Assembly: GCA_964386535.1 (NCBI GenBank)
Contig: CAYLRY010000008.1
Span: 6,579 to 70,578 of the forward strand
Origin: an uncultured Dehalococcoidales bacterium
GTDB lineage: Bacteria; Chloroflexota; Dehalococcoidia; Dehalococcoidales; UBA3254
Reading direction: 5' to 3'
DNA length: 64,000 bases
Positions 908 through 43,347 of the stretch are shown piece by piece. The notes under the pieces are model-generated. The model worked only from the letters and a program-made list of their open reading frames with translations. It was not told the DNA's origin and ran no database searches. The position numbers were made by a program, and so were the translations under genes. The first letter of the stretch is position 1. Each line of letters opens with the position of its first letter.

Positions 908-2620
908 TTACTTGCTTACCCAGATATTTTCTACATCCCAGAACGCTGGCGACGCAGAACTGGCAGGGGCGCGGGTTCCCAGACCCGTATCATGGACCTT
1001 ATCGGAAACTACCCACAGGCTAGACTCCCAGTAGATAGGTATAAAGGTGCAATCATCATAAATGACCTGGGAAGCTTTCTGCATGGATGCCTTTTCCGGC
1101 ACTATAGGACCAGTGCCTATTTCATCGTAGACAGCCTTCCAGTCAGGCGCATCTTTGACTACAGTATAACGAGAAGTGCGGCCTGGTGGGAAGTTATAAC
1201 CGATTGTAGCCAGAATGCTTCCCTCAAACGGAGTCATGTTCATTAAGAGGGCGTTTTTCCATCCCTTGGCCAGATAATCAGCTTGCTTAGCTGTGGTGAT
1301 AAATTCAATTTCAGTACTAATTTTTACTGCGGCGAGATTGGCCTGGACGGCCTGCAAGACATTTCTATCCATGGTATCAAGGGCAATTATACGAGTGTTG
1401 AAACCATCAGCGTACCCGGCTTCAGCTAACAGGGCTTTAGCCTTGGCCACATCATACTTGCGTCCGGTGATCGTGGGTACATAAGCCGGCGCTTCCGGGC
1501 TGGCTGGTTGCGTGGCAGCTTTCCAGAAGCCCAGTCCAAAGGTCTTGGCGATGCCTTCTTTATCAATCGCATATTCCACAGCCTGACGTACCTGAATCTT
1601 GGAGTAAGGTGAATCAGCATTGGCGCTGTCCGGCATTAGACTCATGGAGTCCGCCGGCTGTGATATGACCTGGTACCCCTGCACTGCCAACTGGAAGGCA
1701 TTCAAAGGGTTGCTGGTGGCATTTAAGATGATTGGATCGTTGGAGCTAGAGGTAAAAAGAGCTTTTTGTGTCATCGGATCTTTAACAAACACAAATTTGA
1801 TACTGTCCAGATTGGGCTTGCCGGTATTCCAGTAATTGGGATTACGTTTTGCGAAAAATGAGACATCTCTTTGCCAGTCTGACTGCACATAGGCGCCGGT
1901 GCCTACAATGTGTTCCTTGACCCAATCAATACCGTTTTTCTCGTAAGCGGTGGGAGACACCATATAATTCTGGTACTTGGCAAAAGCCGGAAAGATGGAG
2001 TTACGTTGCATAGTCATGGGGACTGAAAGGGTATAATCATCAATTACGTCCAGGGATTTATAGTAACTTACGCTGGCATACAACTTCGAATTAATCTGTT
2101 GTTGCATATTCCATTTGAGAGCCTGAGCATTCACCTCCGTTCCATCGGAGAACTTTACGCCTTTTTTAACATGCCAGATGATGGTAGGAGGATTATTCTG
2201 ATATTCCAGAGAAGCGAGTTGCTCCGTGAGTTTACCATCATTTCCTTCTTTGAGAAGCGTTTCCATACAAACTTGCTGGCAGACGTTGCCGCTGGCAAAC
2301 AAAAAAGAAGCCCCGATGGGACCTGCAGGACCATTGGGCTCAATCCAAGTCAAAGTACCGCCGAGGTGCGAACTGGTTGTTTCTGATGCGGGTTTGGTTG
2401 CCGGGGGAGCAATAGTTGCCGGCCCGGCTGCAGATGTGACCGGCACCGTGGTAGATGGGATTGGAGCGCTGATGGTAGTTGTTACTGGAGATAATATGTT
2501 TGTTTTTGGAGGCGTGGTCGTTGCAGGAGTCGGCGTGGTGTTCGGGGAACTGCAGCCGACCGCTAACAACACGCAGAGCAGGAATATGGATAGGGCAATC
2601 ACCATAAATGGTTTTTTCAT
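908..2620 (-). CDS. ABC transporter substrate-binding lipoprotein, family 5 (peptide/nickel/opine type)
   Basis: 570-aa ORF. It has a signal peptide with lipobox LAVGC, a ~60-aa T/P/A-rich linker, and an SBP_bac_5-like core (NPNYWNTGKPNLDSIKF, AVEYAIDKEGIAKTF, LLAEAGYADGFNTRI). Confidence 0.85.
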   Translation of the reverse strand: MKKPFMVIALSIFLLCVLLAVGCSSPNTTPTPATTTPPKTNILSPVTTTISAPIPSTTVPVTSAAGPATIAPPATKPASETTSSHLGGTLTWIEPNGPAGPIGASFLFASGNVCQQVCMETLLKEGNDGKLTEQLASLEYQNNPPTIIWHVKKGVKFSDGTEVNAQALKWNMQQQINSKLYASVSYYKSLDVIDDYTLSVPMTMQRNSIFPAFAKYQNYMVSPTAYEKNGIDWVKEHIVGTGAYVQSDWQRDVSFFAKRNPNYWNTGKPNLDSIKFVFVKDPMTQKALFTSSSNDPIILNATSNPLNAFQLAVQGYQVISQPADSMSLMPDSANADSPYSKIQVRQAVEYAIDKEGIAKTFGLGFWKAATQPASPEAPAYVPTITGRKYDVAKAKALLAEAGYADGFNTRIIALDTMDRNVLQAVQANLAAVKISTEIEFITTAKQADYLAKGWKNALLMNMTPFEGSILATIGYNFPPGRTSRYTVVKDAPDWKAVYDEIGTGPIVPEKASMQKASQVIYDDCTFIPIYWESSLWVVSDKVHDTGLGTRAPASSASPAFWDVENIWVSK

Positions 2621-2699
2621 TTTACTAACCTACCTTCCTTTTAGTCAATCTTAATAATCGTCCTGTTTGGCGTTGTCCAATCTAAAATATTTATTCCTA

Positions 2700-3461
2700 C
2701 TAATCGCCGGCGATATTTTTAGAGATGCGATTAGTACTGGCAATCAACTCCTTTACCATTTCGGATACCCTTTCACGTAATCTATATTCGGGTCCAAGAA
2801 TGGATAAAGAGGCTGGAAGGTGGTAGTTTTTGATGGGAGCGGCTATACCTAAGGCCCCGGGGACCTTCTCCCCGTAACTAATGGAATATCCCTGCTCTCT
2901 GGCTTCTTTTATTTTCAAAAGAAATACGGTTTTATCGATTATTGTATTTTCTGTTATCTTTTCAAGTTTTATATATTTCAAGAGCTTTTCCAGCTCTTTG
3001 TCACTCGATTGTGATAGTAAAACCCTTGCTGTTGGGCCAACGAATAAAGGTGTTAAAGTTTTAATCTCTTCGTGAATCCGGAGGTCGTTTTTACTTTCAA
3101 TTGAATAGACAGGTAGATATTCGATTCCTAACCGAACCGTTAAATTGATTGTTTCCCCGCTGATTTCTGCAATTCGCTGCATTTCTTCAATGCTACAGGC
3201 TATCAGCTGCTGATGCGTGACCTGGGGGAAAGAATGGATTTTATCTATCAGGGTGCCCACATAGTGCTTTTTTGTTACGGGATCTTTCCTGGCAAACCCT
3301 GATTTTTCAAGAGCCCTGAGCAATCTGTATACTGTTGGCATTGAATAATGGCAGTGATTGGATATTTCGCTCAGGGTATTAATGCCCATGCTCAGACATA
3401 CCAATATTTTCGCTGAGCGGGCAATAGACCTGATTTCAACGCTATCTCTTTGCTTTTCCAT
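2700..3461 (-). CDS. IclR family transcriptional regulator
   Basis: 253 aa. N-terminal wHTH (ARSAKILVCLSMGINTLSEISNHCHYSMPTVYRLLRALEKSGF) plus a C-terminal IclR effector-domain pattern (GALGIAAPI). Divergent from the enolase-family gene. Confidence 0.85.
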   Translation of the reverse strand: MEKQRDSVEIRSIARSAKILVCLSMGINTLSEISNHCHYSMPTVYRLLRALEKSGFARKDPVTKKHYVGTLIDKIHSFPQVTHQQLIACSIEEMQRIAEISGETINLTVRLGIEYLPVYSIESKNDLRIHEEIKTLTPLFVGPTARVLLSQSSDKELEKLLKYIKLEKITENTIIDKTVFLLKIKEAREQGYSISYGEKVPGALGIAAPIKNYHLPASLSILGPEYRLRERVSEMVKELIASTNRISKNIAGD

Positions 3462-3860: not shown

Positions 3861-5042
3861 ATGAAAATAACCAAAATAGAATGTTACCCTATCAGCTTAC
3901 CCCGGCCTGCACCCAGTAACAGAGCTAATGATATCGTATTGACCAAGATATACACAGATGAAGGTATCACTGGCGTGGCTGACGGCGGTGAACACCTGAA
4001 TGCTTTTGGCGGACAGGAAATAGTGATGGCCTTAATCAAATCATGGGGGCCCATCCTGATCGGCGCCAATCCATTTGATAAAGAGCTGATCCTGGGCAAG
4101 TTAAATAGCTTTATACACAGCAACACAGGCCTTTCATATCCTAATGTAGTTGCCATCATCGACTTTTGTTTATGGGACCTGATTGGTAAAGCCATGAAAC
4201 AACCTATCTATCAGCTGTTAGGCGGTAAGGCCAATGAAAAGCTTCAGGTTGATTATGTGATGTCTGATATTACGGCACCTTCACCGGTTGAGCTGGCGAA
4301 AAGAGCGGAAAGGGCAGTGGATAACGGTATTCGGACGATATGTCTGAAGGTGGGAGGACTCTGGGGAGGGAACTTCGAACGCGACGTGGTGAATATCAAG
4401 ACGCTTAGTAAAGCCATTGGAGATAGAGAGGATTTCCATTTATGCATAGATGCCAACGGGGCAATGAACTATACCATGGCGCTGGAGCTAGCTCGCAGAG
4501 TGGAGGATTGTAAGATATATAAATTCGAACAACCTACACCGTGGTGGGATATTGATGGACTGGCCCGTCTGCGGAAAAATATCAAACCGGCAATTTGCGC
4601 ACATGAGTCCAGCGTCAAGATCCCCGGTTTGCTTGAAGTAATTAAAAAGGATGCTGCTGATATGGTAGGCACCAAGGTTGTATGGACGGGAGGCATTTCA
4701 GAGGCTGTCAGATGGGGCGGTATTGCTAAAGGAGCTGATCTGGCGGTTTACTGCGGATCCATGAACGGGCCTTTCGAGGCGGCAGCCCAAGCACAGTGGT
4801 TGGCCTCGGATGCCATGTATGGCCATCTGGCACATGCCAATTTCTTCCCCATGTCTTACCACGACACCTTCGATACTACCGGGAAATTGACCAGAGAAGA
4901 TATTGTTGTTAAACCACTGGCTTATAAAAATGGCTATTTCTATCCACCGGATGCACCAGGAATAGGATTGGAACTCAACGAGAAGGCTATTCCCAGGTTT
5001 ATTACCAAAGGTATGAGCCCACTTACGATTGATGGAAAATAA
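3861..5042 (+). CDS. Mandelate racemase/muconate lactonizing enzyme family protein (enolase superfamily)
   Basis: AAGGAG lies 6 nt before ATG 3861. MKITKIECYPISLPRP forms the capping domain; barrel motifs are ICLKVGG, CIDANGA, KFEQP and CAHES. The track start at 3792 adds 23 implausible residues. Confidence 0.85.
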   Translation: MKITKIECYPISLPRPAPSNRANDIVLTKIYTDEGITGVADGGEHLNAFGGQEIVMALIKSWGPILIGANPFDKELILGKLNSFIHSNTGLSYPNVVAIIDFCLWDLIGKAMKQPIYQLLGGKANEKLQVDYVMSDITAPSPVELAKRAERAVDNGIRTICLKVGGLWGGNFERDVVNIKTLSKAIGDREDFHLCIDANGAMNYTMALELARRVEDCKIYKFEQPTPWWDIDGLARLRKNIKPAICAHESSVKIPGLLEVIKKDAADMVGTKVVWTGGISEAVRWGGIAKGADLAVYCGSMNGPFEAAAQAQWLASDAMYGHLAHANFFPMSYHDTFDTTGKLTREDIVVKPLAYKNGYFYPPDAPGIGLELNEKAIPRFITKGMSPLTIDGK

Positions 5043-6296: not shown

Positions 6297-6728
6297 TCAA
6301 TTTGAAAGCTTTTCCCTGATCTTTTCAGGAAGCGAAATCACCTGTTGCCGGTTATAATCAAAGGCAACAATACCTGTTTTTGCCCTGGCGACTTCTGAAT
6401 TACTTTGCTCCTCCATCAGGCGGTAAACAATATTAAAGCTTTTCTGAGTGAAATCTGTCGTCGCCACGTCGATCCGCAAGCGTTGTCCGTAATTGACCTG
6501 CTTCTTATAGATCAAACTTAAATCTGAAATAATAAATCCCAGACCGGAAATGATGTCGTATTGTTCTGAAAACCCTCGACCGGATAAAAACTGCGCTCTG
6601 GCTTCCTGGACCAGCAAAACCATAGAAGCATGGTCCAAATGGTGTCCGCTGTTAATATCCCCAATACGAACCTGCAAAAAAGTTGAAAAATTGAATTTTT
6701 CCGGTAAAGTAATCTCTAAACTGGACAA
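6297..6728 (-). CDS. Hotdog-fold acyl-CoA thioesterase (4HBT/YbgC-like)
   Basis: 143 aa with a TTG start. The length and pattern (FxxxVRIGDINSGHHLDHASMV...GFIISDLSLIYKKQVNYGQRLRI) are typical of 4HBT thioesterases. Confidence 0.7.
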   Translation of the reverse strand: MSSLEITLPEKFNFSTFLQVRIGDINSGHHLDHASMVLLVQEARAQFLSGRGFSEQYDIISGLGFIISDLSLIYKKQVNYGQRLRIDVATTDFTQKSFNIVYRLMEEQSNSEVARAKTGIVAFDYNRQQVISLPEKIREKLSN

Positions 6729-36109: not shown

Positions 36110-37315
36110 TTAATTTGATCGTCGAGTAAAAAACAACAACGCTATTGCAATTATTTCCATAATCACCGCGAAAACAAATATATAAACGATGGAGACTTCA
36201 TAAAGGAACCCCATCGCAGTACTTCCCAGAAATAATGATAAACCATAAAGCGTGTTGAAAATGCCATAAGCGCTACCCCTCCTTTCCATTGGGACCATAT
36301 CGGCTATTGCTGCTCGCATAATAGTCTCATGAATACCCATCACAGCACCCCATATCACTATAGCCCCCAGTATTAATCCGTAGGATTGTGAAAATCCCAG
36401 CAACGGAATAGGCATAGTCAATACAGGAACAGCTATTAAAACCTTCAAGCCTTTTTTATCATAGGTCTTGCCAATGATTAAGGCCACAATTGCGTCGACT
36501 CCCATAGCCACTGCATAAAGAATCGGGATCTGAGCATCAGAAATGATTGCTTGAGCCTTTACATGGTAAGCGATAAGCTGAAAGCTGGCAAAACCTGTTC
36601 CGGCCAGAAGGACAAAAAAACCATACAGCCAAAATACCCGGCCAAGTCTGGCTTTGGGGGGTTGTATATTGGTTTCGATTTTAGTTTCCAGCTTTTCTGG
36701 AACCGGAGCTTTCCGATTCGCAAATACCAGGGCCGCGACACATAGCACAACGGGTAACCAGAGTAAATTAAAGCCTGGCTGATAGGCCTGGCTCTCCAAC
36801 AAAGCAAATGACAGGATAAGAGGGCCAATAATAGCTCCGACCTGATCCATCGCCTCATGAATCGCAAACGCCCAACCCCTGCCAATATTTTTCCCAGCGT
36901 AAGAGATTATTGTATCCCGTGCCGGGCTTCTAATAGCCTTGCCGATACGCTCTAAAATGAGAAGCAGCGCCGCAAGTTGCCAGCAACCTGCGAAGGCTAA
37001 CAGGGGAATAGCTGCAATCAGGCCGTAGCCGATAAATGTCAGCGCCCAATAGGCTTTAGTGCGGTCTGCAAAATATCCTGAAACAATCCTTAACCCATAT
37101 CCAAGAAACTCACCAGCCCCGGTAATAAGACCGACCATTGCGGCGCTGGCTCCTAACGTCGCTAGATAAGGACTGCTGATACTCCGGCCTCCTTCGTAGG
37201 CAATATCCCCAAACATGCTGACGATACCGAGAAGCATAACAAGCTGGAATGCCGTCTTGCGATAGTCTTTCTTTTTTGATTGCCCGGAATTTACGTGGAT
37301 TTCTTCTTGTTTCAT
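36110..37315 (-). CDS. MFS transporter
   Basis: 12-TM MFS pattern (LGIVSMFGDIAYEGGRSISSPYLATLGAS...GYFADRTK). ATG 37315 is preferred; the track start at 37399 lies inside an upstream domain remnant. Confidence 0.8.
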   Translation of the reverse strand: MKQEEIHVNSGQSKKKDYRKTAFQLVMLLGIVSMFGDIAYEGGRSISSPYLATLGASAAMVGLITGAGEFLGYGLRIVSGYFADRTKAYWALTFIGYGLIAAIPLLAFAGCWQLAALLLILERIGKAIRSPARDTIISYAGKNIGRGWAFAIHEAMDQVGAIIGPLILSFALLESQAYQPGFNLLWLPVVLCVAALVFANRKAPVPEKLETKIETNIQPPKARLGRVFWLYGFFVLLAGTGFASFQLIAYHVKAQAIISDAQIPILYAVAMGVDAIVALIIGKTYDKKGLKVLIAVPVLTMPIPLLGFSQSYGLILGAIVIWGAVMGIHETIMRAAIADMVPMERRGSAYGIFNTLYGLSLFLGSTAMGFLYEVSIVYIFVFAVIMEIIAIALLFFTRRSN

Positions 37316-37329
37316 GACGGTTGCTCTTT

Positions 37330-37594
37330 CAGAATCCTGCCATTCTATCTTAATTCCTAATGATTTTACACCTCGGCTGGCTAGGTATTTCAGTTCCATG
37401 GCAACTGATTCAGGAAGAATTACCTCGGTCTCTTCGCCAAACTTAAAGGACTTATTCTCAAGTTTATCGATGATTTCTTTTAACCTGGTTAGCAGTTGGT
37501 CCCTTGAATATACTGCCTGAATATTTTGTTGACCCCCTTTTGCTTCTTCCTTAAGCTTTAGAATTGGGATAAGGTTTTGAGGGTATTTTTTGTA
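37330..37594 (-). pseudogene. Amphi-Trp-domain-like remnant, in frame with and upstream of the MFS gene, no canonical start
   Basis: The stop-free frame reads KEEAKGGQQNIQAVYSRDQLLTRLKEIIDKLENKSFKFGEETEVILPESVAMELKYLASRGVKSLGIKIEWQD. This resembles small amphi-Trp domain proteins, which end in the pattern L-I-x-I-E-W. No ATG/GTG/TTG occurs between the upstream stop (37597-37595) and ATG 37399. Confidence 0.35.
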
Positions 37595-37962: not shown

Positions 37963-39033
37963 TCATATAGTGATATTTTTTTCAAAGGCCCGGATTCTTT
38001 TCATCCTCAAGATAACGTGAACATCCTTACCGGTCTCCAAATTCATATCCTGGTAAATATGATGGGGTATTTCCGAGATCAATTTATTATTACCTATTTT
38101 AAGGTAGATTCTCATGGTATCAGTCCGGGGTACAATGTTAATTATTTTACCCATGAAGCTGTTTACCCCGGGTCCGCGAGGCTTGATTTCAGAAACGTAA
38201 ATATGCCGGGGTAAAATGGCTATTTTATGAATATTCTCGCCTTCATGCGGCACCATTATTTTCAATCCCTGACAGCCAACCTCCATAATGCCCTGCCCTG
38301 TATTTTTACTGTAATCACAATCCAGTATATTGGGAGCTCCTATGAAATCAGACACCCTTTCGTTGCAGGGGGAAAACAGCAGCTTTTCCGGCTCATCTAC
38401 CTGCTCAATCTTACCGTCCATCACAATCGCCAACCTATCAGCCATATTTACGGCTTCCATCAGGTCATGAGTAACATAAATAGTGGTAATGCCCAATCGT
38501 CTGTGAATCTGCTTTAATTCCGTTCTTAAATATTTAGAGGTCTGAGGATCCAGTGCACTGAACGGTTCATCCATGAGTAGTATTTGAGGGGAAGCAGCCA
38601 GAGCCCTGGCCAGTGCCACACGCTGCTTTTCACCGCCGCTTAAAGTGCGTGTATCTCGATCTAACAAATTAGTAATTGCAAACAGGTTAGCCATGGTAAG
38701 CGTCTTTTCCTGGACCTTTGCTTTGTCATACTTGCCCCTCTTCAATCCAAATTGAATATTTTCAGTGACATTAAGAAAAGGAAACAGAACATAGTCTTGT
38801 GGAACATAGCCTATTCTGCGTTCCTCAGGAGATAGGGATGTGATATTTTTCCCGTCAACACTGATTTCGCCTTTTTTAACCCTGTGTAACCCTGCCAGGC
38901 ATTCTATAAATATGGTTTTACCTGCTCCTGAGGGCCCCAGGATTATAAAGTATTCCTGATCTTTGATGGAAAGGTTCAAATTTTTAAGAGAAAACCCACC
39001 TATTTGAATGGAAAGATTTTTTATTTCTATCAT
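37963..39033 (-). CDS. modC: Molybdate/tungstate ABC transporter ATP-binding protein with TOBE-like C-terminus
   Basis: 356 aa. Motifs are GPSGAGKT, LSGGEKQRVALARAL and LLMDEPFSALD, with a ~110-aa C-terminal beta domain. It overlaps the permease gene by 4 nt. Confidence 0.8.
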   Translation of the reverse strand: MIEIKNLSIQIGGFSLKNLNLSIKDQEYFIILGPSGAGKTIFIECLAGLHRVKKGEISVDGKNITSLSPEERRIGYVPQDYVLFPFLNVTENIQFGLKRGKYDKAKVQEKTLTMANLFAITNLLDRDTRTLSGGEKQRVALARALAASPQILLMDEPFSALDPQTSKYLRTELKQIHRRLGITTIYVTHDLMEAVNMADRLAIVMDGKIEQVDEPEKLLFSPCNERVSDFIGAPNILDCDYSKNTGQGIMEVGCQGLKIMVPHEGENIHKIAILPRHIYVSEIKPRGPGVNSFMGKIINIVPRTDTMRIYLKIGNNKLISEIPHHIYQDMNLETGKDVHVILRMKRIRAFEKNITI

Positions 39034-39839
39034 AAACTAAACCTGCGTCCGGTAATTAACCGAACCAGCAGTAATGCCAAGAGTGAAATTGCCACCAGTA
39101 TCAGTATTAAAGCTACAGCCTGTTCGATATTGGCAGAAGCAAGACTTAATGCTATAGAAATAGGTAGAGTTTCTGTTTTCATGGCAGTCGCACCAGCCAG
39201 TGTCACAGTAGCTCCAAATTCGCCGACAGCTCTGGCCCAGGTTAGAATGCTGGCAGCTACCAAGCCGTTTTTGGCCAAAGGTAGCATCACTTTAAAGAAG
39301 GCTTCCGGTTTGCTGCAACCCAGCGTGCGGGCAACCTGCTCATAGCGCGTGTCAATACTATCAAAAGTAGATTTTAAAAGGCGAACGGCTAATGCGCTCA
39401 CAATGGTAAACTGAGCCAGGACAATCCCTGGAACTGAAAAAACAAATTGAAGCACATTGTTATTTATAACCTGACCCAAGGGAGTATTGAAAAACACCAG
39501 CAATGCAGCACCCAGTGCAACTGGAGAAATTACTATTGGCAAATCCAGCAGGCTATCTATCAGGTTTTTCCCGAAGAAGTCATTTTTAGAAATGGCGTAA
39601 GCTACCGGGATAGCGATGGCTACCGCTAAAATCGTGGTGATTGTAGCGGTAGCCAGGCTGAGCTTAATGGCAAACAAGGTATGCGAAGATAATATTGAAG
39701 AGCCGAAGGTATTCCAATCTGTATATGTCAGTAAAGAAACTATAATAACTATAAAAAACAGAGTCAGCAGAGTTAATGCACTTATGGTTGCCGTTCTGAA
39801 AACCCTGTCACCCCGGACACCCTGAAAAATTCTGCTCAT
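39030..39839 (-). CDS. modB: Molybdate/tungstate ABC transporter permease (CysTW/ModB type)
   Basis: 269 aa. EQVARTLGCSKPEAFFKVMLPLAKNGLVAASILTWARAVGEFGATVTLAG resembles the ModB EAA/GEFGAT region. Confidence 0.8.
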   Translation of the reverse strand: MSRIFQGVRGDRVFRTATISALTLLTLFFIVIIVSLLTYTDWNTFGSSILSSHTLFAIKLSLATATITTILAVAIAIPVAYAISKNDFFGKNLIDSLLDLPIVISPVALGAALLVFFNTPLGQVINNNVLQFVFSVPGIVLAQFTIVSALAVRLLKSTFDSIDTRYEQVARTLGCSKPEAFFKVMLPLAKNGLVAASILTWARAVGEFGATVTLAGATAMKTETLPISIALSLASANIEQAVALILILVAISLLALLLVRLITGRRFSL

Positions 39840-39857
39840 GTTATTCTCTGATATTCA

Positions 39858-40766
39858 TTAATTCATTAATACCTTCCAGGAATCGGGAAGCTGGTATTCA
39901 CCCCCGATCTGGGCATTTGGAGCATATTTACGCGCTTCGGCTTCAGTAACATCATAGCCCCATTTTCTGAATATGTCCTGACCATCCGGTGAAACCAGAA
40001 AATCGATAAAGGCTGTGGCTGCTTCTCTCTCTTTGACAAAGGTAGATACTGCCGCAGGAACATAAGCAATGCGGGGGATTTGTTCCGGGTTTAGATATAT
40101 TGTTTCAATATTCTTCGGGTCCCAGGCCTGAAAAACACTCCATCCAATAACCGCATCTACTGACTTAAGCGATATTAAAGTGGCCGTATTATCGCAACTG
40201 GCAGCCTGAGTAACTATATTAGTATAGACATCTGCCAGCAAATGATTTTTGTTTAGAAGCTCAACAGCATATAAGCCCACGCAAACAGTAGTTGGATTGC
40301 CTATACCAACCTTAATACCTGATTTGGTAAGATCTGACAAAGATTGAATGTTCTTAGGATTTCCAGTTTGAACATTGATAGCTGGAATAAGGTAAGCAAT
40401 AATTTTTGTCGAAGCCGGATCGGTTATTTTCTTGCTTTCGGATTTTACCAGATAGTCCGGTGATCCGGGAATATAGAGGTCTCCGTTTTTTGATAATTCC
40501 ATTTGAGATAGGACTGTACCGGATCCGCCGTATGTCAGGAAAACTTTTACTCCAGTTTGTTTTTCAAACGCCGCGGCGGCTTCATCCAGTGCGGGCTTAC
40601 TGGCAGAACCGGCAAAGACTGATATCTCTTTACCTGACAGCGAAGAATTTTTAGAGGATATGGACGTATTGGTTGTAGAAACCGGTTGGTTGGAACAACC
40701 TGCCAGCGACATTATCAGTAATAAACTGCTGAGTAAAAAGACTAACAGAATATTGTTGATTTTCAT
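39858..40766 (-). CDS. modA: Molybdate/tungstate-binding lipoprotein (ModA/WtpA-like)
   Basis: ATG 40766 lies 5 nt after AAGGAG; the track uses the adjacent TTG. Lipobox is SLAGC. ISVFAGSASKPALDEAAAAFEKQTGVKVFLTYGGSGTVLSQ parallels the ModA N-lobe. Confidence 0.75.
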   Translation of the reverse strand: MKINNILLVFLLSSLLLIMSLAGCSNQPVSTTNTSISSKNSSLSGKEISVFAGSASKPALDEAAAAFEKQTGVKVFLTYGGSGTVLSQMELSKNGDLYIPGSPDYLVKSESKKITDPASTKIIAYLIPAINVQTGNPKNIQSLSDLTKSGIKVGIGNPTTVCVGLYAVELLNKNHLLADVYTNIVTQAASCDNTATLISLKSVDAVIGWSVFQAWDPKNIETIYLNPEQIPRIAYVPAAVSTFVKEREAATAFIDFLVSPDGQDIFRKWGYDVTEAEARKYAPNAQIGGEYQLPDSWKVLMN

Positions 40767-40840
40767 CAAATCTCCTTAAAAGTAAATAAGTGTAATTAAA
40801 ACAGTCAATTATTATATTTATTTATGCTTTCATACCTCTT

Positions 40841-40965
40841 CTCCTTTCCAATCCGGGGAAGTAGCGCCGTTTCCTGCACTACCGTTGATCCGCTTTATGC
40901 GGATACCGGCTGGTTACCCTGTCCCGAACTCACCGGGATTTAGATAAATCAGCTCCAGAGAAATG
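40841..40965 (-). promoter_or_regulatory. Moco (molybdenum cofactor) riboswitch-like element, proximal copy
   Basis: The reverse strand reads CUCUGGAGCUG...CCCGgugaguuCGGG...AUCCGCauaaaGCGGAU...UAGUGCaggaaacgGCGCUA...UUGGAAAGGAG. It is located in the modA leader. The stems covary with the distal copy. Confidence 0.6.
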
Positions 40966-41061
40966 GTTTATTCTTTTATCAATTTACCAATCTTCTCAGA
41001 GAGAAAAAAACATTGATAAAGAGTTCATGTAAAATGAACTATGAAGATGAAATAACAAAAT

Positions 41062-41093
41062 AATAGCGCTTCTCTGAAATAGAGAGCGCTATT
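41062..41093 (-). terminator. Hairpin/terminator between the two riboswitch-like copies
   Basis: AATAGCGCTCTCT pairs with AGAGAAGCGCTATT (one bulge, 5-nt loop). On the reverse strand it is followed by ATTTTGTTATTT. Confidence 0.45.
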
Positions 41094-41119
41094 ATTTTTG
41101 CAAACAGACTTCATTTCAT

Positions 41120-41235
41120 CTCCTTTCCAATTTGGGAAATATCACCGTTTCCAGTGATACCGTCGAGATTCTGCATCTACCGGCTGTTAACCTTGTTCTT
41201 GCTTGAATTTAGGTACAACAGCTCTGGAGAATTTC
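41120..41235 (-). promoter_or_regulatory. Moco riboswitch-like element, distal copy
   Basis: The reverse strand reads CUCCAGAGCUG...AGAUgcagaAUCU...UAUCACuggaaacgGUGAUA...UUGGAAAGGAG. It has the same architecture as the proximal copy, with compensatory stem changes. Confidence 0.55.
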
Positions 41236-41320
41236 ACTAATTGCTATAATATCAAGGTTTAAAAAATCCGTCAATAAATACGTCCCATATTGTCATAAAA
41301 ACCCTGGTGCAGCATTAAGA

Positions 41321-41578
41321 AAGGTTACCAAGGTCAAGGCGGTAGCGGCAATATTTAGTCTGGACCGCCACACCATCAAATACATCGATAATAAGGCATT
41401 ACAGAAGATGAAGACCGAGCGGTCTCTGCCTTAGATTGAGGTTCTGGGGATGAATAAAATTGCGGTAGAAAAGGGGCATAACTTCCGGACGCTGATCAGC
41501 GGGTTGGATAATCTTCGAGCTACTGAGGTGCTCAATATCTGCGAGGGAAGCTTAGAAAAACGCCTAAAAGGATTCTGG
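41321..41578 (+). mobile_element. ISL3-family transposase remnant (internal stop, both ends missing)
   Basis: The translation VAAIFSLDRHTIKYIDNKALQKMKTERSLP*IEVLGMNKIAVEKGHNFRTLISGLDNLRATEVLNICEGSLEKRLKGF parallels the ISL3 block ...LGIDEIAxRKGHxYxTVVxDLxxxRVxxVxEGRxxExLxxF. It ends at the tRNA 3' end. Confidence 0.65.
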
Positions 41579-41650
41579 CTCCCCGACTAGGGCTCGAACC
41601 TAGAACCTAGCGGTTAACAGCCGCCCGCTCTACCATTGAGCTATCGGGGA
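41576..41650 (-). tRNA. tRNA-Asn (anticodon GTT), CCA encoded
   Basis: The reverse strand is TCCCCGA TA GCTC AATGGTA GAGC G GGCGG CTGTTAA CCGCT AGGTT CTAGG TTCGAGC CCTAG TCGGGGA G CCA. All four stems pair and the anticodon loop is CU-GUU-AA. Confidence 0.9.
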
Positions 41651-41784
41651 ATGCACCGGAGGGAACCGAGGCTAGTAATCGGATTTTTTTCCCACCTTGA
41701 GTATTATCACTTTTTACACTAAAAATGTCAAGGCCTCAGGACAACCTCTGAGGATGTGATAAGAATTTCTCACCAGGCTTAATA

Positions 41785-41888
41785 ACCTTGATTCACCATC
41801 AAATGAAGCTAAACGAGATTCAATATTTTCACCAAATTGGTACAGAAACCTCATGCCTGATTAAGACTTCTTGACGGCGCATTCTGGA
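41785..41888. repeat. Direct repeat copy A (~100 nt)
   Basis: The 74-nt core (41785-41858) is ~88 percent identical (65/74) to 42036-42109. A weaker similarity continues for ~30 nt more. Confidence 0.85.
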
Positions 41889-42035
41889 TAACCTGATCAG
41901 TAAATGTAATCCAGGCTAAAAAATTGTTGGAATTACAGAGCGTCAGGTACGGAAGAGGGTATGCAGCCTGGCATTAAAGCCTTAGAACGTTGTATTATAT
42001 TTTAATACCGGACAAATAATCAAGAGTTGTTCCGA

Positions 42036-42138
42036 ACCTTGATTCACCATCAAACAAAGCTAAACGAGCGTGGATATTTTCACCAAATTGGTGCAGAAAC
42101 CTTGTGCCTATTTGAAGCAATTTGATGGCGGATTTTGG
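42036..42138. repeat. Direct repeat copy B (~100 nt), just upstream of the M20 peptidase gene
   Basis: See copy A. Both contain the small hairpin TTGATtcaccATCAA. Confidence 0.85.
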
Positions 42139-42189
42139 CGAAAAGATATCAGTTGTCAATTTTGTTTCTGATAAAAAAAGGAGAATGTA

Positions 42190-43347
42190 GTGGACTACGT
42201 GAAAGTTCTGTCTGATCTGATTTCTATAAATACCTCGGTTCCTCCGGGGGACAATTATTCCAGAGCTGTAGATTATCTTGAGCCTTTGTTTAAGAATACT
42301 GGTTTTGAAACTGAAAAAATAGCCATACCCGTTGAACAGGCTGAAGGAAGAGAAGGGCGGGTCAATCTGCTCTGTCATAGAAGGGATCCGGGCAAACCCA
42401 GGTTAATATTTTATTCTCATATTGATGTAGTCCCGGCTTTCGGCTGGCCAGCCTTCCAGCCGAGGATAGAAAACGGAAAAATCTGGGGGCGGGGTGCAGC
42501 AGATATGAAAGGTGCTATTCCGGCTTTATTGATGGCGGCGGAAAGATGCCAGGGAAGGCCTTTAAAATACGATGTTTCGGTGATGATCACCACTGATGAG
42601 GAACTCAGCCAGGCCAGCCAGTTACGTTATATCAGTCAATTTTTACAGCCTTTGAAAGGGGCCTATTTTTTTGATTTGGATTGTAATTTCGCTTACGTCA
42701 GTATTACCGGACTGGGTACTTATCAATTGGACATCCGCGTGTTGGGAAAATCCGTCCATTCAGGTATGTCCCATCTGGGTGAAAACGCCGTTGAGAACGC
42801 TGTTCCCGTGTTGAATGCGTTAATGGATTTGAAAAGCCGGGTAACGCAAAGAAAATCCCGGATCCCCACCCATCCGGATACCGGCCTTAAACAAATGGTT
42901 TCCAGGTTAAATATCAATATGATACAGGGCGGGTTGAAAGTTAACATAATACCGGATGAATGTAATATATCTATTGACCGGCGCCTCATTCCGGAAGAAA
43001 ATATAGAAGCTGCCAGAAAAGAGATTATGGACACTCTTACAGCAGTGCCCGGCATCCGGTGGGAGATAACCAGGGAATTCAGCATTCCTACCATTGCCCC
43101 CTGCGAAGACCCCCTCATCGATGAACTGGCTGGGATTATGAAAGGTGTAATAGGAGAAGGTGGAAAGTATGGTGAGATGGGCTCTGGAGATCTTACAAAC
43201 ATGGTAGTCAACGAATGGGGCGGTAAAGCCTTCGGTCTGGGAGTAATCAGACCTGATAGTAATATTCACGGCAAGGATGAATTTGCCTATCTCAAGGATA
43301 TTGAAGATCTGGCCGAGATTATTTACCGTTTTATAAAATCAACGTAA
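42190..43347 (+). CDS. M20-family metallopeptidase (ArgE/DapE/acetylornithine deacetylase-like)
   Basis: 385 aa with a GTG start 7 nt after AGGAG. Motifs are LISINTS, YSHIDVVPA and GRGAADMKGAI. Confidence 0.85.
   Translation: MDYVKVLSDLISINTSVPPGDNYSRAVDYLEPLFKNTGFETEKIAIPVEQAEGREGRVNLLCHRRDPGKPRLIFYSHIDVVPAFGWPAFQPRIENGKIWGRGAADMKGAIPALLMAAERCQGRPLKYDVSVMITTDEELSQASQLRYISQFLQPLKGAYFFDLDCNFAYVSITGLGTYQLDIRVLGKSVHSGMSHLGENAVENAVPVLNALMDLKSRVTQRKSRIPTHPDTGLKQMVSRLNINMIQGGLKVNIIPDECNISIDRRLIPEENIEAARKEIMDTLTAVPGIRWEITREFSIPTIAPCEDPLIDELAGIMKGVIGEGGKYGEMGSGDLTNMVVNEWGGKAFGLGVIRPDSNIHGKDEFAYLKDIEDLAEIIYRFIKST

Follow-up and report, generated by a model that had tools for sequence, protein, structure and literature searches.

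Tandem Moco riboswitch aptamers precede the modABC operon of an uncultured Dehalococcoidales bacterium

The Moco motif has a GAAA tetraloop on P4 and a receptor-like CCUAA bulge in P2, and RNAs that contain P3 are associated with Moco, those that lack it with the tungsten cofactor (Regulski et al., 2008; PMC2408646). Even the Escherichia coli RNA had not been demonstrated to bind Moco directly, according to PMC2408646. Tandem Moco motifs were described in Syntrophomonas wolfei and Geobacter metallireducens, among them an S. wolfei triplet in which terminators follow the first and second copies and a long gap separates the array from the ORF (Regulski et al., 2008; PMC2408646). A later survey counted 13 Moco doublets and two triplets, which it filed as pseudo-cooperative; “bi-mechanism” tandems, with a terminator first and then a ribosome binding site (RBS), were defined there for SAM-II/SAM-V (Sherlock et al., 2022; PMC9481103). 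Control through a short upstream ORF is documented for the ppe2 B12 riboswitch of Mycobacterium tuberculosis, where the uORF is needed for downstream expression and acts by termination-reinitiation (Kipkorir et al., 2024; PMC11260477). Moco riboswitches have also been noted in Dehalogenimonas, upstream of moaA and moaC.

Because tandem Moco riboswitches have been described since 2008, the locus reported here is a new example and not a new kind of system. It lies in a stretch of 64,000 nucleotides from an uncultured Dehalococcoidales bacterium, here called the window. A scan of the entire window against Rfam at the gathering threshold returned three matches only, a tRNA-Asn and two copies of RF01055 (Molybdenum/Tungsten riboswitch aptamer; Moco/Wco). 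The copy distal to modA scored 57.6 bits (E 3.3e-11) and the proximal copy 56.5 bits (E 7.2e-11), each over model positions 1-135 and against a gathering score of 36 bits (Table 1). A permissive scan of 40400-42200 (E <= 1) revealed no third degenerate copy and no other RNA family; a match to rli38 in the leader was dismissed as chance-level. Pieces of the two copies were paired independently by a repeat finder, at a spacing of 274-279 nt. The motif occurs before genes for molybdate transport, Moco biosynthesis or Moco enzymes, and the leader agrees with this location, standing upstream of ModA/ModB genes that score above the family cut-offs. We regard it as confirmed that the leader carries two genuine Moco-class aptamers in tandem, far beyond chance. 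The initial annotation had proposed two tandem Moco aptamers with covarying stems and a terminator between them, before modABC, and this proposal held: both copies exceed the gathering score of the covariance model on the reverse strand, ModA and ModB are recognized by their models and the doublet recurs in relatives. The details it had pointed to, namely shared 5' boxes and GGAAACG loops, identical 3' ends, two internal stems that differ yet stay paired (P3 and P4), a U-tailed hairpin between the copies, ATGs after each 3' end that open only small ORFs, and an AAGGAG belonging to modA itself, were all found on reading the sequence.

Table 1. Positions in the window of the leader elements and of the operon behind them.
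Feature	Position	Strand	Basis or remark
Sigma-70-like promoter, TTGACG-17-TATTAT with TG extended -10	41246..41274	-	10/12 matches
Distal Moco aptamer	41104..41241	-	RF01055 match
Small ORFs opened by the distal SD	41025..41119	-	sequence reading; by-products, non-conserved
Intrinsic-terminator hairpin and U-tract (distal expression platform)	41050..41101, core 41096-41059	-	fold energy, homologues
Spacer between the copies	40973..41049	-	without conserved promoter consensus
Proximal Moco aptamer	40825..40972	-	RF01055 match
3-codon mini-ORF, AUG AAA GCA UAA	40822..40833	-	starts 7 nt after the proximal GGAG
A/U-rich spacer ending in the modA SD	40772..40821	-	without conserved secondary structure
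modA-modB-modC operon	37963..40766	-	NCBIfam scores

The 5' boxes read CUCCAGAGCUG in the distal and CUCUGGAGCUG in the proximal aptamer, the GGAAACG loop is common to both, and the 3' end UUGGAAAGGAG is identical (41130-41120 and 40850-40841, respectively). P1 is formed by CUCC (41229-41226) with GGAG (41123-41120) in the distal copy and by CUCU (40960-40957) with GGAG (40844-40841) in the proximal copy, where P1 is longer, at about 10 pairs (ACCAUUUCUCU with GGAGAAGAGGU), and reaches exactly as far as an AUG. P3 comprises four pairs in the distal (AGAU/AUCU) versus six in the proximal copy (AUCCGC/GCGGAU). P4 likewise differs in sequence and keeps its pairing, with UAUCAC/GUGAUA and a GAAA loop in the distal versus UAGUGC/GCGCUA in the proximal copy. 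With the receptor-like sequences ACCUAAAU (distal) and AUCUAAAU (proximal) and GGAAAC in both, the P4 tetraloop and P2 receptor-like element of the Moco motif are found in both copies, and so is the P1-P5 multistem junction, with few non-canonical pairs in the covariance-model alignment. RNAalifold analysis of 14 related aptamers recovered P1, P2, P4 and P5, with compensatory changes at 8 pairs.

For comparison, loci encoding ModA homologues were fetched and scanned with Rfam, and three to four doublet loci were readable. The ModA sequences nearest to that of the window belong to Dehalococcoidales and Dehalococcoidaceae MAGs. A doublet is present in L001 (ModA 81-83% identical) and L030 (80%), and probably in L031 (96%), whose sequence begins inside the terminator 3' arm and has the proximal copy. 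Singlets of an SD type, in which GGAG is directly followed by the modA ATG, were found in L002, L003, L004 and L032, and L023 has a single copy with the aptamer just upstream of modA. The singlets of L033 and L021 are of a terminator type and precede a MoCF_biosynth gene and modA. The product of this gene, 340 aa long and Cys-rich at its C-terminus (CLNCEKCSFPVCPFGK in L021), stays below every NCBIfam cut-off, and the gene is the first one behind the leader in L030 (850-1872), L033 (813-1835) and L021 (399-1421). In L030 it lies between leader and modA; it is absent at this locus in the window and in L001. A more distant locus, L025 (ModA 51% identical), has two divergent Moco aptamers about 90 nt apart, 2436-2558(-) and 2649-2812(+), which are not tandem, and its contig also holds a fluoride riboswitch at 6596-6657(+). 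Seven further loci from JGI sample 3300075153, looked up as gene maps only, have gene-free gaps of about 180 to 1175 nt upstream of modA.

Comparison of the aptamer cores revealed 88% identity among the three distal copies, which group with the terminator-type singlets; the proximal copies cluster with L002-L004, singlets of the SD type. The distal and proximal aptamers of the window are 65% identical. Since the copies are this divergent and cluster with different singlet types, the doublet appears to be two old lineages in series, and a recent duplication was rejected on the same grounds. The doublet is retained in at least three lineages. The relatives show in this way how doublets can arise, by placing terminator-type and SD-type lineages one behind the other.

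Promoter and terminator calls in this work are consensus matches. The predicted promoter ends 5 nt before the distal Rfam match, which places the predicted transcription start a few nucleotides before the distal aptamer, and TTGACG-17-TAnAAT with TG was found at the equivalent place before the distal copy in L001 and L030. When the spacer between the copies was scanned for the consensus in the window, L001 and L030, no conserved internal promoter was detected; the L030 spacer has a 9/12 promoter-like match that the other loci do not share. The gap between the aptamers (41104 to 40972) measures 131 nt and contains only non-conserved small ORFs. Two complete aptamers less than 300 nt apart and with no intervening ORF are what Sherlock et al. 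(2022) call a tandem.

The hairpin behind the distal copy consists of AAUAAUAGCGCUCUCU-AUUUC-AGAGAAGCGCUAUUAUU, followed by UUUGUUAUUU, with UUUUGUUAUUU as the U-tract. Its folding energy is -22.4 kcal/mol compared to -7.3 +/- 2.2 for shuffled sequences (z -6.7), and none of 200 shuffles was as stable. A homologous hairpin is present in L001, L030, L033 and L021, and the L030 copy was also called as a terminator. Furthermore, the distal module can be aligned with the singlet leaders L033 and L021, the terminator sequence included (AAUAGCGCUCUCU...GCGCUAUU). The distal copy therefore most likely works as an OFF switch that terminates transcription. An antiterminator was searched for by folding transcripts truncated before the terminator 3' arm and by comparing duplex energies with those of shuffles. 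In relatives, the truncated transcripts have the 3' strand of P1, rich in purines, paired with the 5' arm of the terminator, a pyrimidine-rich stretch (CUCUCU). In L030 the pairing GGAGAAG/CUUCUCC forms with a probability of 0.84 in the fold, and 0.2% of shuffles attain its duplex energy of -15.9 kcal/mol; the pairing includes a compensatory change, CUCUCU to CUUCUCC being matched by GGAGAUG to GGAGAAG. GGAGAG/CUCUCU in L033 and L021 gives -8.6 kcal/mol (about 2% of shuffles), and GGAGAUG/CG(C)UCUCU in L001 gives -9.0 kcal/mol (12%) with a fold probability of 0.5-0.7. In the window, which has the sequences of L001, the pairing is not preferred in the fold and at -7.0 kcal/mol is no better than chance (32% of shuffles); here the truncated transcript favors a linker hairpin with no obvious dependence on P1. 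An RNA antiterminator is thus well supported by the models for L030, L033 and L021, and weakly for the window.

Two small ORFs open behind the distal SD, AUG AAA UGA (41119-41111) and a 29-codon ORF that starts at 41114, runs through the terminator and stops at 41027-41025. The counterpart of the latter in L001 has 14 codons and lies in another frame, owing to a 1-nt indel. No AUG close to the distal SD was found in L030, where the nearest is 17 nt from GGAG, nor in L033 or L021. We judge these ORFs to be non-conserved by-products, and leader-peptide control of the distal terminator was rejected, as length and frame differ in L001 and the ORF is absent in the other three loci. The start of the longer ORF, AUG AAG UCU (41114-41106), resembles the modA start of L004, AUG AAG UCC (3935-3943); this likeness may be a trace of an older junction between riboswitch and modA, or chance.

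Behind the proximal copy, the pattern AUG NNN RCA UAA is kept in all four doublet loci, the probable doublet L031 included: AUGAAAGCAUAA in the window, AUGAAAACAUAA in L031, AUGGAAACAUAA in L001 and AUGACUACAUAA in L030. An alternative reading of these 12 nt is a hairpin of 3-4 bp, (U)AUG-NNNN-CAU(A), which in the window is UAUG-AAAG-CAUA. The proximal aptamer itself is clearly under selection, because the four doublet loci each have a different P3 sequence and all keep it paired (CCGC/GCGG, CCCGA/UCGGG, UCUUC/GAAGA). modA has its own SD, AAGGAG at 40777-40772, with the ATG at 40766, 64 nt past the proximal GGAG, and in the doublet loci generally the main gene has an SD of its own that lies 55-72 nt further downstream. 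Since this SD is strong, ribosomes could load on modA without the mini-ORF. No conserved structure linking the proximal aptamer to the main SD was found in the four tails, whose consensus fold reaches -2.8 kcal/mol. In the models, the stretch from the proximal SD to the AUG is about 0.2 unpaired when P1 is enforced and becomes free when the P1 strands are single-stranded. The modelled accessibility of the modA SD in the window is 0.28 with P1 enforced versus 0.40 with both P1 strands single-stranded, and in the other three doublet loci the main SD is about equally accessible with and without P1. Given this near constancy, we rejected the idea that the proximal P1 is coupled to the modA SD directly through structure. 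A second terminator after the proximal copy was likewise discarded, as L031, at 96%, lacks the weak A/U hairpin that the window has there, and the consensus fold of the tails is as weak as given above. The earlier suggestion of mixed control, transcriptional by the distal and translational by the proximal copy, is reasonable, with one reservation. The distal module is homologous to riboswitch-terminator leaders of singlets, and the proximal type covers the SD and AUG of modA in singlets; in the window, however, the proximal SD opens only the 3-codon mini-ORF, and the modA start is not directly covered. In its SD and N-terminus the window modA agrees with the modA of L030, the second gene of the operon there, and the first ~20 nt after the mini-ORF agree too, which suggests that an L030-like operon lost its first gene to give the window arrangement.

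Within the operon, modA (40766-39858(-)) encodes a protein with a lipoprotein signal peptide that scores 85.5 on TIGR01256 (cut-off 62.5). ModB (39839-39030(-)) scores 218.9 on TIGR01581, the molybdate-type ABC permease (cut-off 210.3), and with 171 remains below the cut-off of the modB model TIGR02141 (182.6). The best model for ModC (39033-37963(-)) is tungstate-type WtpC with 333 bits (cut-off 440), followed by ModC with 210 (cut-off 285), both below cut-off. Judged by sequence, the transported oxyanion may therefore be molybdate or tungstate. A gene for an MFS transporter of 429 aa (36110-37399(-)) lies 560 nt beyond modC in the same orientation, and relatives carry other genes at its position. 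On the other side, 335 nt separate the leader from the tRNA-Asn(GTT) gene (41576-41650(-)), which is upstream and likewise on the reverse strand. The tRNA gene has a strong promoter-like site of its own (TTGACA-17-GATAAT, 11/12 matches, 41703-41731(-)), and a terminator-like hairpin at 41426-41411 stands between it and the leader. No credible ORF was found in 41260-41575. Further upstream of the tRNA gene, a 104-nt direct repeat (41784-41887 and 42035-42138) with 81% identity recurs 251 nt apart and is echoed as similar peptide strings in the spurious reverse-strand ORFs 41714-41854 and 41995-42378.

Taken together, we consider it probable that the ~475-nt leader acts as two independent Moco-sensing OFF riboswitches in series before the molybdate ABC transporter operon. 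Transcription would start at the conserved promoter. Binding of Moco to the distal aptamer would lock P1, and the hairpin with its U-tract would then terminate the transcript. Under Moco shortage, pairing of the terminator 5' arm with the linker and the P1 3' strand would permit read-through, a step that is well supported in relatives and weakly in the window. The read-through RNA would carry the proximal aptamer, whose extended P1, according to sequence and covariance-model fit, hides the GGAG up to the AUG. In singlets this AUG is the modA start; in doublets it opens the mini-ORF only. The proximal copy would accordingly gate its own SD and ribosome loading on the mini-ORF, and the signal would reach modA indirectly, speculatively by termination-reinitiation or by protection of the mRNA through ribosomes. 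Two serial OFF decisions, on mRNA synthesis first and on translation second, would produce a steeper response to Moco, in line with the pseudo-cooperative and bi-mechanism schemes of the literature.

The main competitor of this reading is that the distal riboswitch and its terminator regulate modABC alone, the proximal copy being an uncoupled relic and the mini-ORF a remnant of an older start. The distance of 64 nt between the proximal GGAG and the modA SD would agree with this, as would the missing conserved connection, an SD accessibility that is insensitive to the state of P1, the singlets L033 and L021 that manage with the terminator type alone, and the match of the modA SD and N-terminus to L030, with the loss of an intervening gene that it suggests. 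A relic is nevertheless unlikely, given an aptamer that scores as well as the distal one (56.5 bits), stems that were all kept through compensatory changes in four loci with ModA only ~80% identical, a mini-ORF pattern retained in every doublet locus, and the occurrence of proximal module and mini-ORF before a different first gene in L030. Another reading places the distal terminator under the control of translation. If ribosomes that load from the free distal SD onto the small ORF blocked termination, the riboswitch would gate a translational attenuator. Such an ORF begins 5 nt after GGAG and enters the terminator hairpin in the window (29 codons) and L001 (14 codons), the two loci in which the RNA-only antiterminator is weak. 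Because the terminator-crossing 29-codon ORF is not conserved, translation-based attenuation is unlikely, and it is in our view the least probable of all readings considered: the 1-nt indel puts the window and L001 ORFs in different frames, the nearest AUG in L030 is 17 nt from GGAG, and L033 and L021 keep aptamer and terminator with no such AUG.

It is also conceivable that the two copies sense different ligands (Moco versus tungsten cofactor or a precursor), or the same one with very different affinities, and form a two-input gate. Their origin from two old lineages with only 65% identity, the resemblance of ModC to tungstate-type WtpC and the Moco and Wco variants proposed in the literature would fit such a gate. 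The initial annotation had offered different ligand preferences as an option. This idea is left without support, because P3, the only published discriminator, is present in both copies (4 and 6 pairs), which makes them members of the Moco-associated class and not of the P3-lacking Wco/Tuco type, and because the alignment of 14 aptamers contains no core-nucleotide difference that is consistent between the lineages. ModA, in addition, passes the molybdate equivalog model. We rate a two-input gate as highly improbable; the copies may still have different affinities for the ligand. Marginally less credible is a division into separate transcripts, with the distal unit as a riboswitch-terminated small RNA or a leader for the 29-codon ORF, and the proximal unit under its own promoter. 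The strong terminator between the copies, a spacer that aligns loosely with the promoter region of singlet loci and the 9/12 match in the L030 spacer speak for it. Against it, the spacers of the window and L001 lack a promoter consensus, the aligned -35 is degraded (TCAAT, TCAAC or TATTG versus TTGAC) with 18 nt inserted, the 29-codon ORF is unconserved in length, frame and presence, and the distal module directly leads an operon in L033 and L021. Two OFF riboswitches in series on one transcript remain our preferred reading.

The locus adds a well-documented Moco doublet before a molybdate transporter from an uncultured Chloroflexota clade. For annotation, this means that two riboswitches should be recorded here and that the small ORFs are not genes. 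It is furthermore a natural test case for mixed-platform (bi-mechanism) Moco control. Only one feature possibly goes beyond what is known, namely the 3-codon mini-ORF conserved after the proximal aptamer. Tentatively, and with a good deal of doubt, we suggest an arrangement in which, in this Dehalococcoidales clade, the proximal riboswitch has ceased to gate the main start codon and controls a conserved mini-ORF (AUG NNN RCA UAA) in its place; ribosomes loading on this ORF, or terminating at it, would switch on a gene 55-72 nt downstream via reinitiation or mRNA protection, behind a terminator riboswitch for the same ligand.

Compared to described systems, the leader is closest to the tandems of S. 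wolfei and G. metallireducens, with which it shares two complete aptamers of the same class in one leader and an intrinsic terminator after the upstream copy; as in the S. wolfei triplet, the first ORF is separated from the last aptamer by a gap. Like the published Moco tandems, the leader is predicted to give steeper OFF control. Unlike these, the window belongs to a clade of Dehalococcoidales relatives, its platforms are mixed (terminator, then SD) and the last SD opens a conserved 3-codon mini-ORF; its target is modABC, whereas biosynthesis genes stand behind the Moco doublets of the 2022 survey (PMC9481103). The order of terminator first and RBS occlusion second, with the same ligand predicted for both, is that of SAM-II/SAM-V and of mixed-platform SAM-II doublets (PMC9481103), from which the window differs in aptamer class and in that it is not the main ORF whose RBS is occluded. 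The E. coli moaA Moco riboswitch (Regulski et al., 2008) resembles the proximal type in having P1-P5 with P3 and an RBS in the P1 3' strand and in being a genetic OFF switch. Exactly this build is found in the SD-type singlets L002-L004; unlike the window, the E. coli riboswitch is a single copy without a terminator that directly controls its main ORF. The ppe2 B12 riboswitch, finally, has a short uORF under riboswitch control and is a possible model for the proximal copy, although it belongs to another riboswitch class and phylum, and the uORF of the window has 3 codons and ends 55 nt before a gene with a strong SD.
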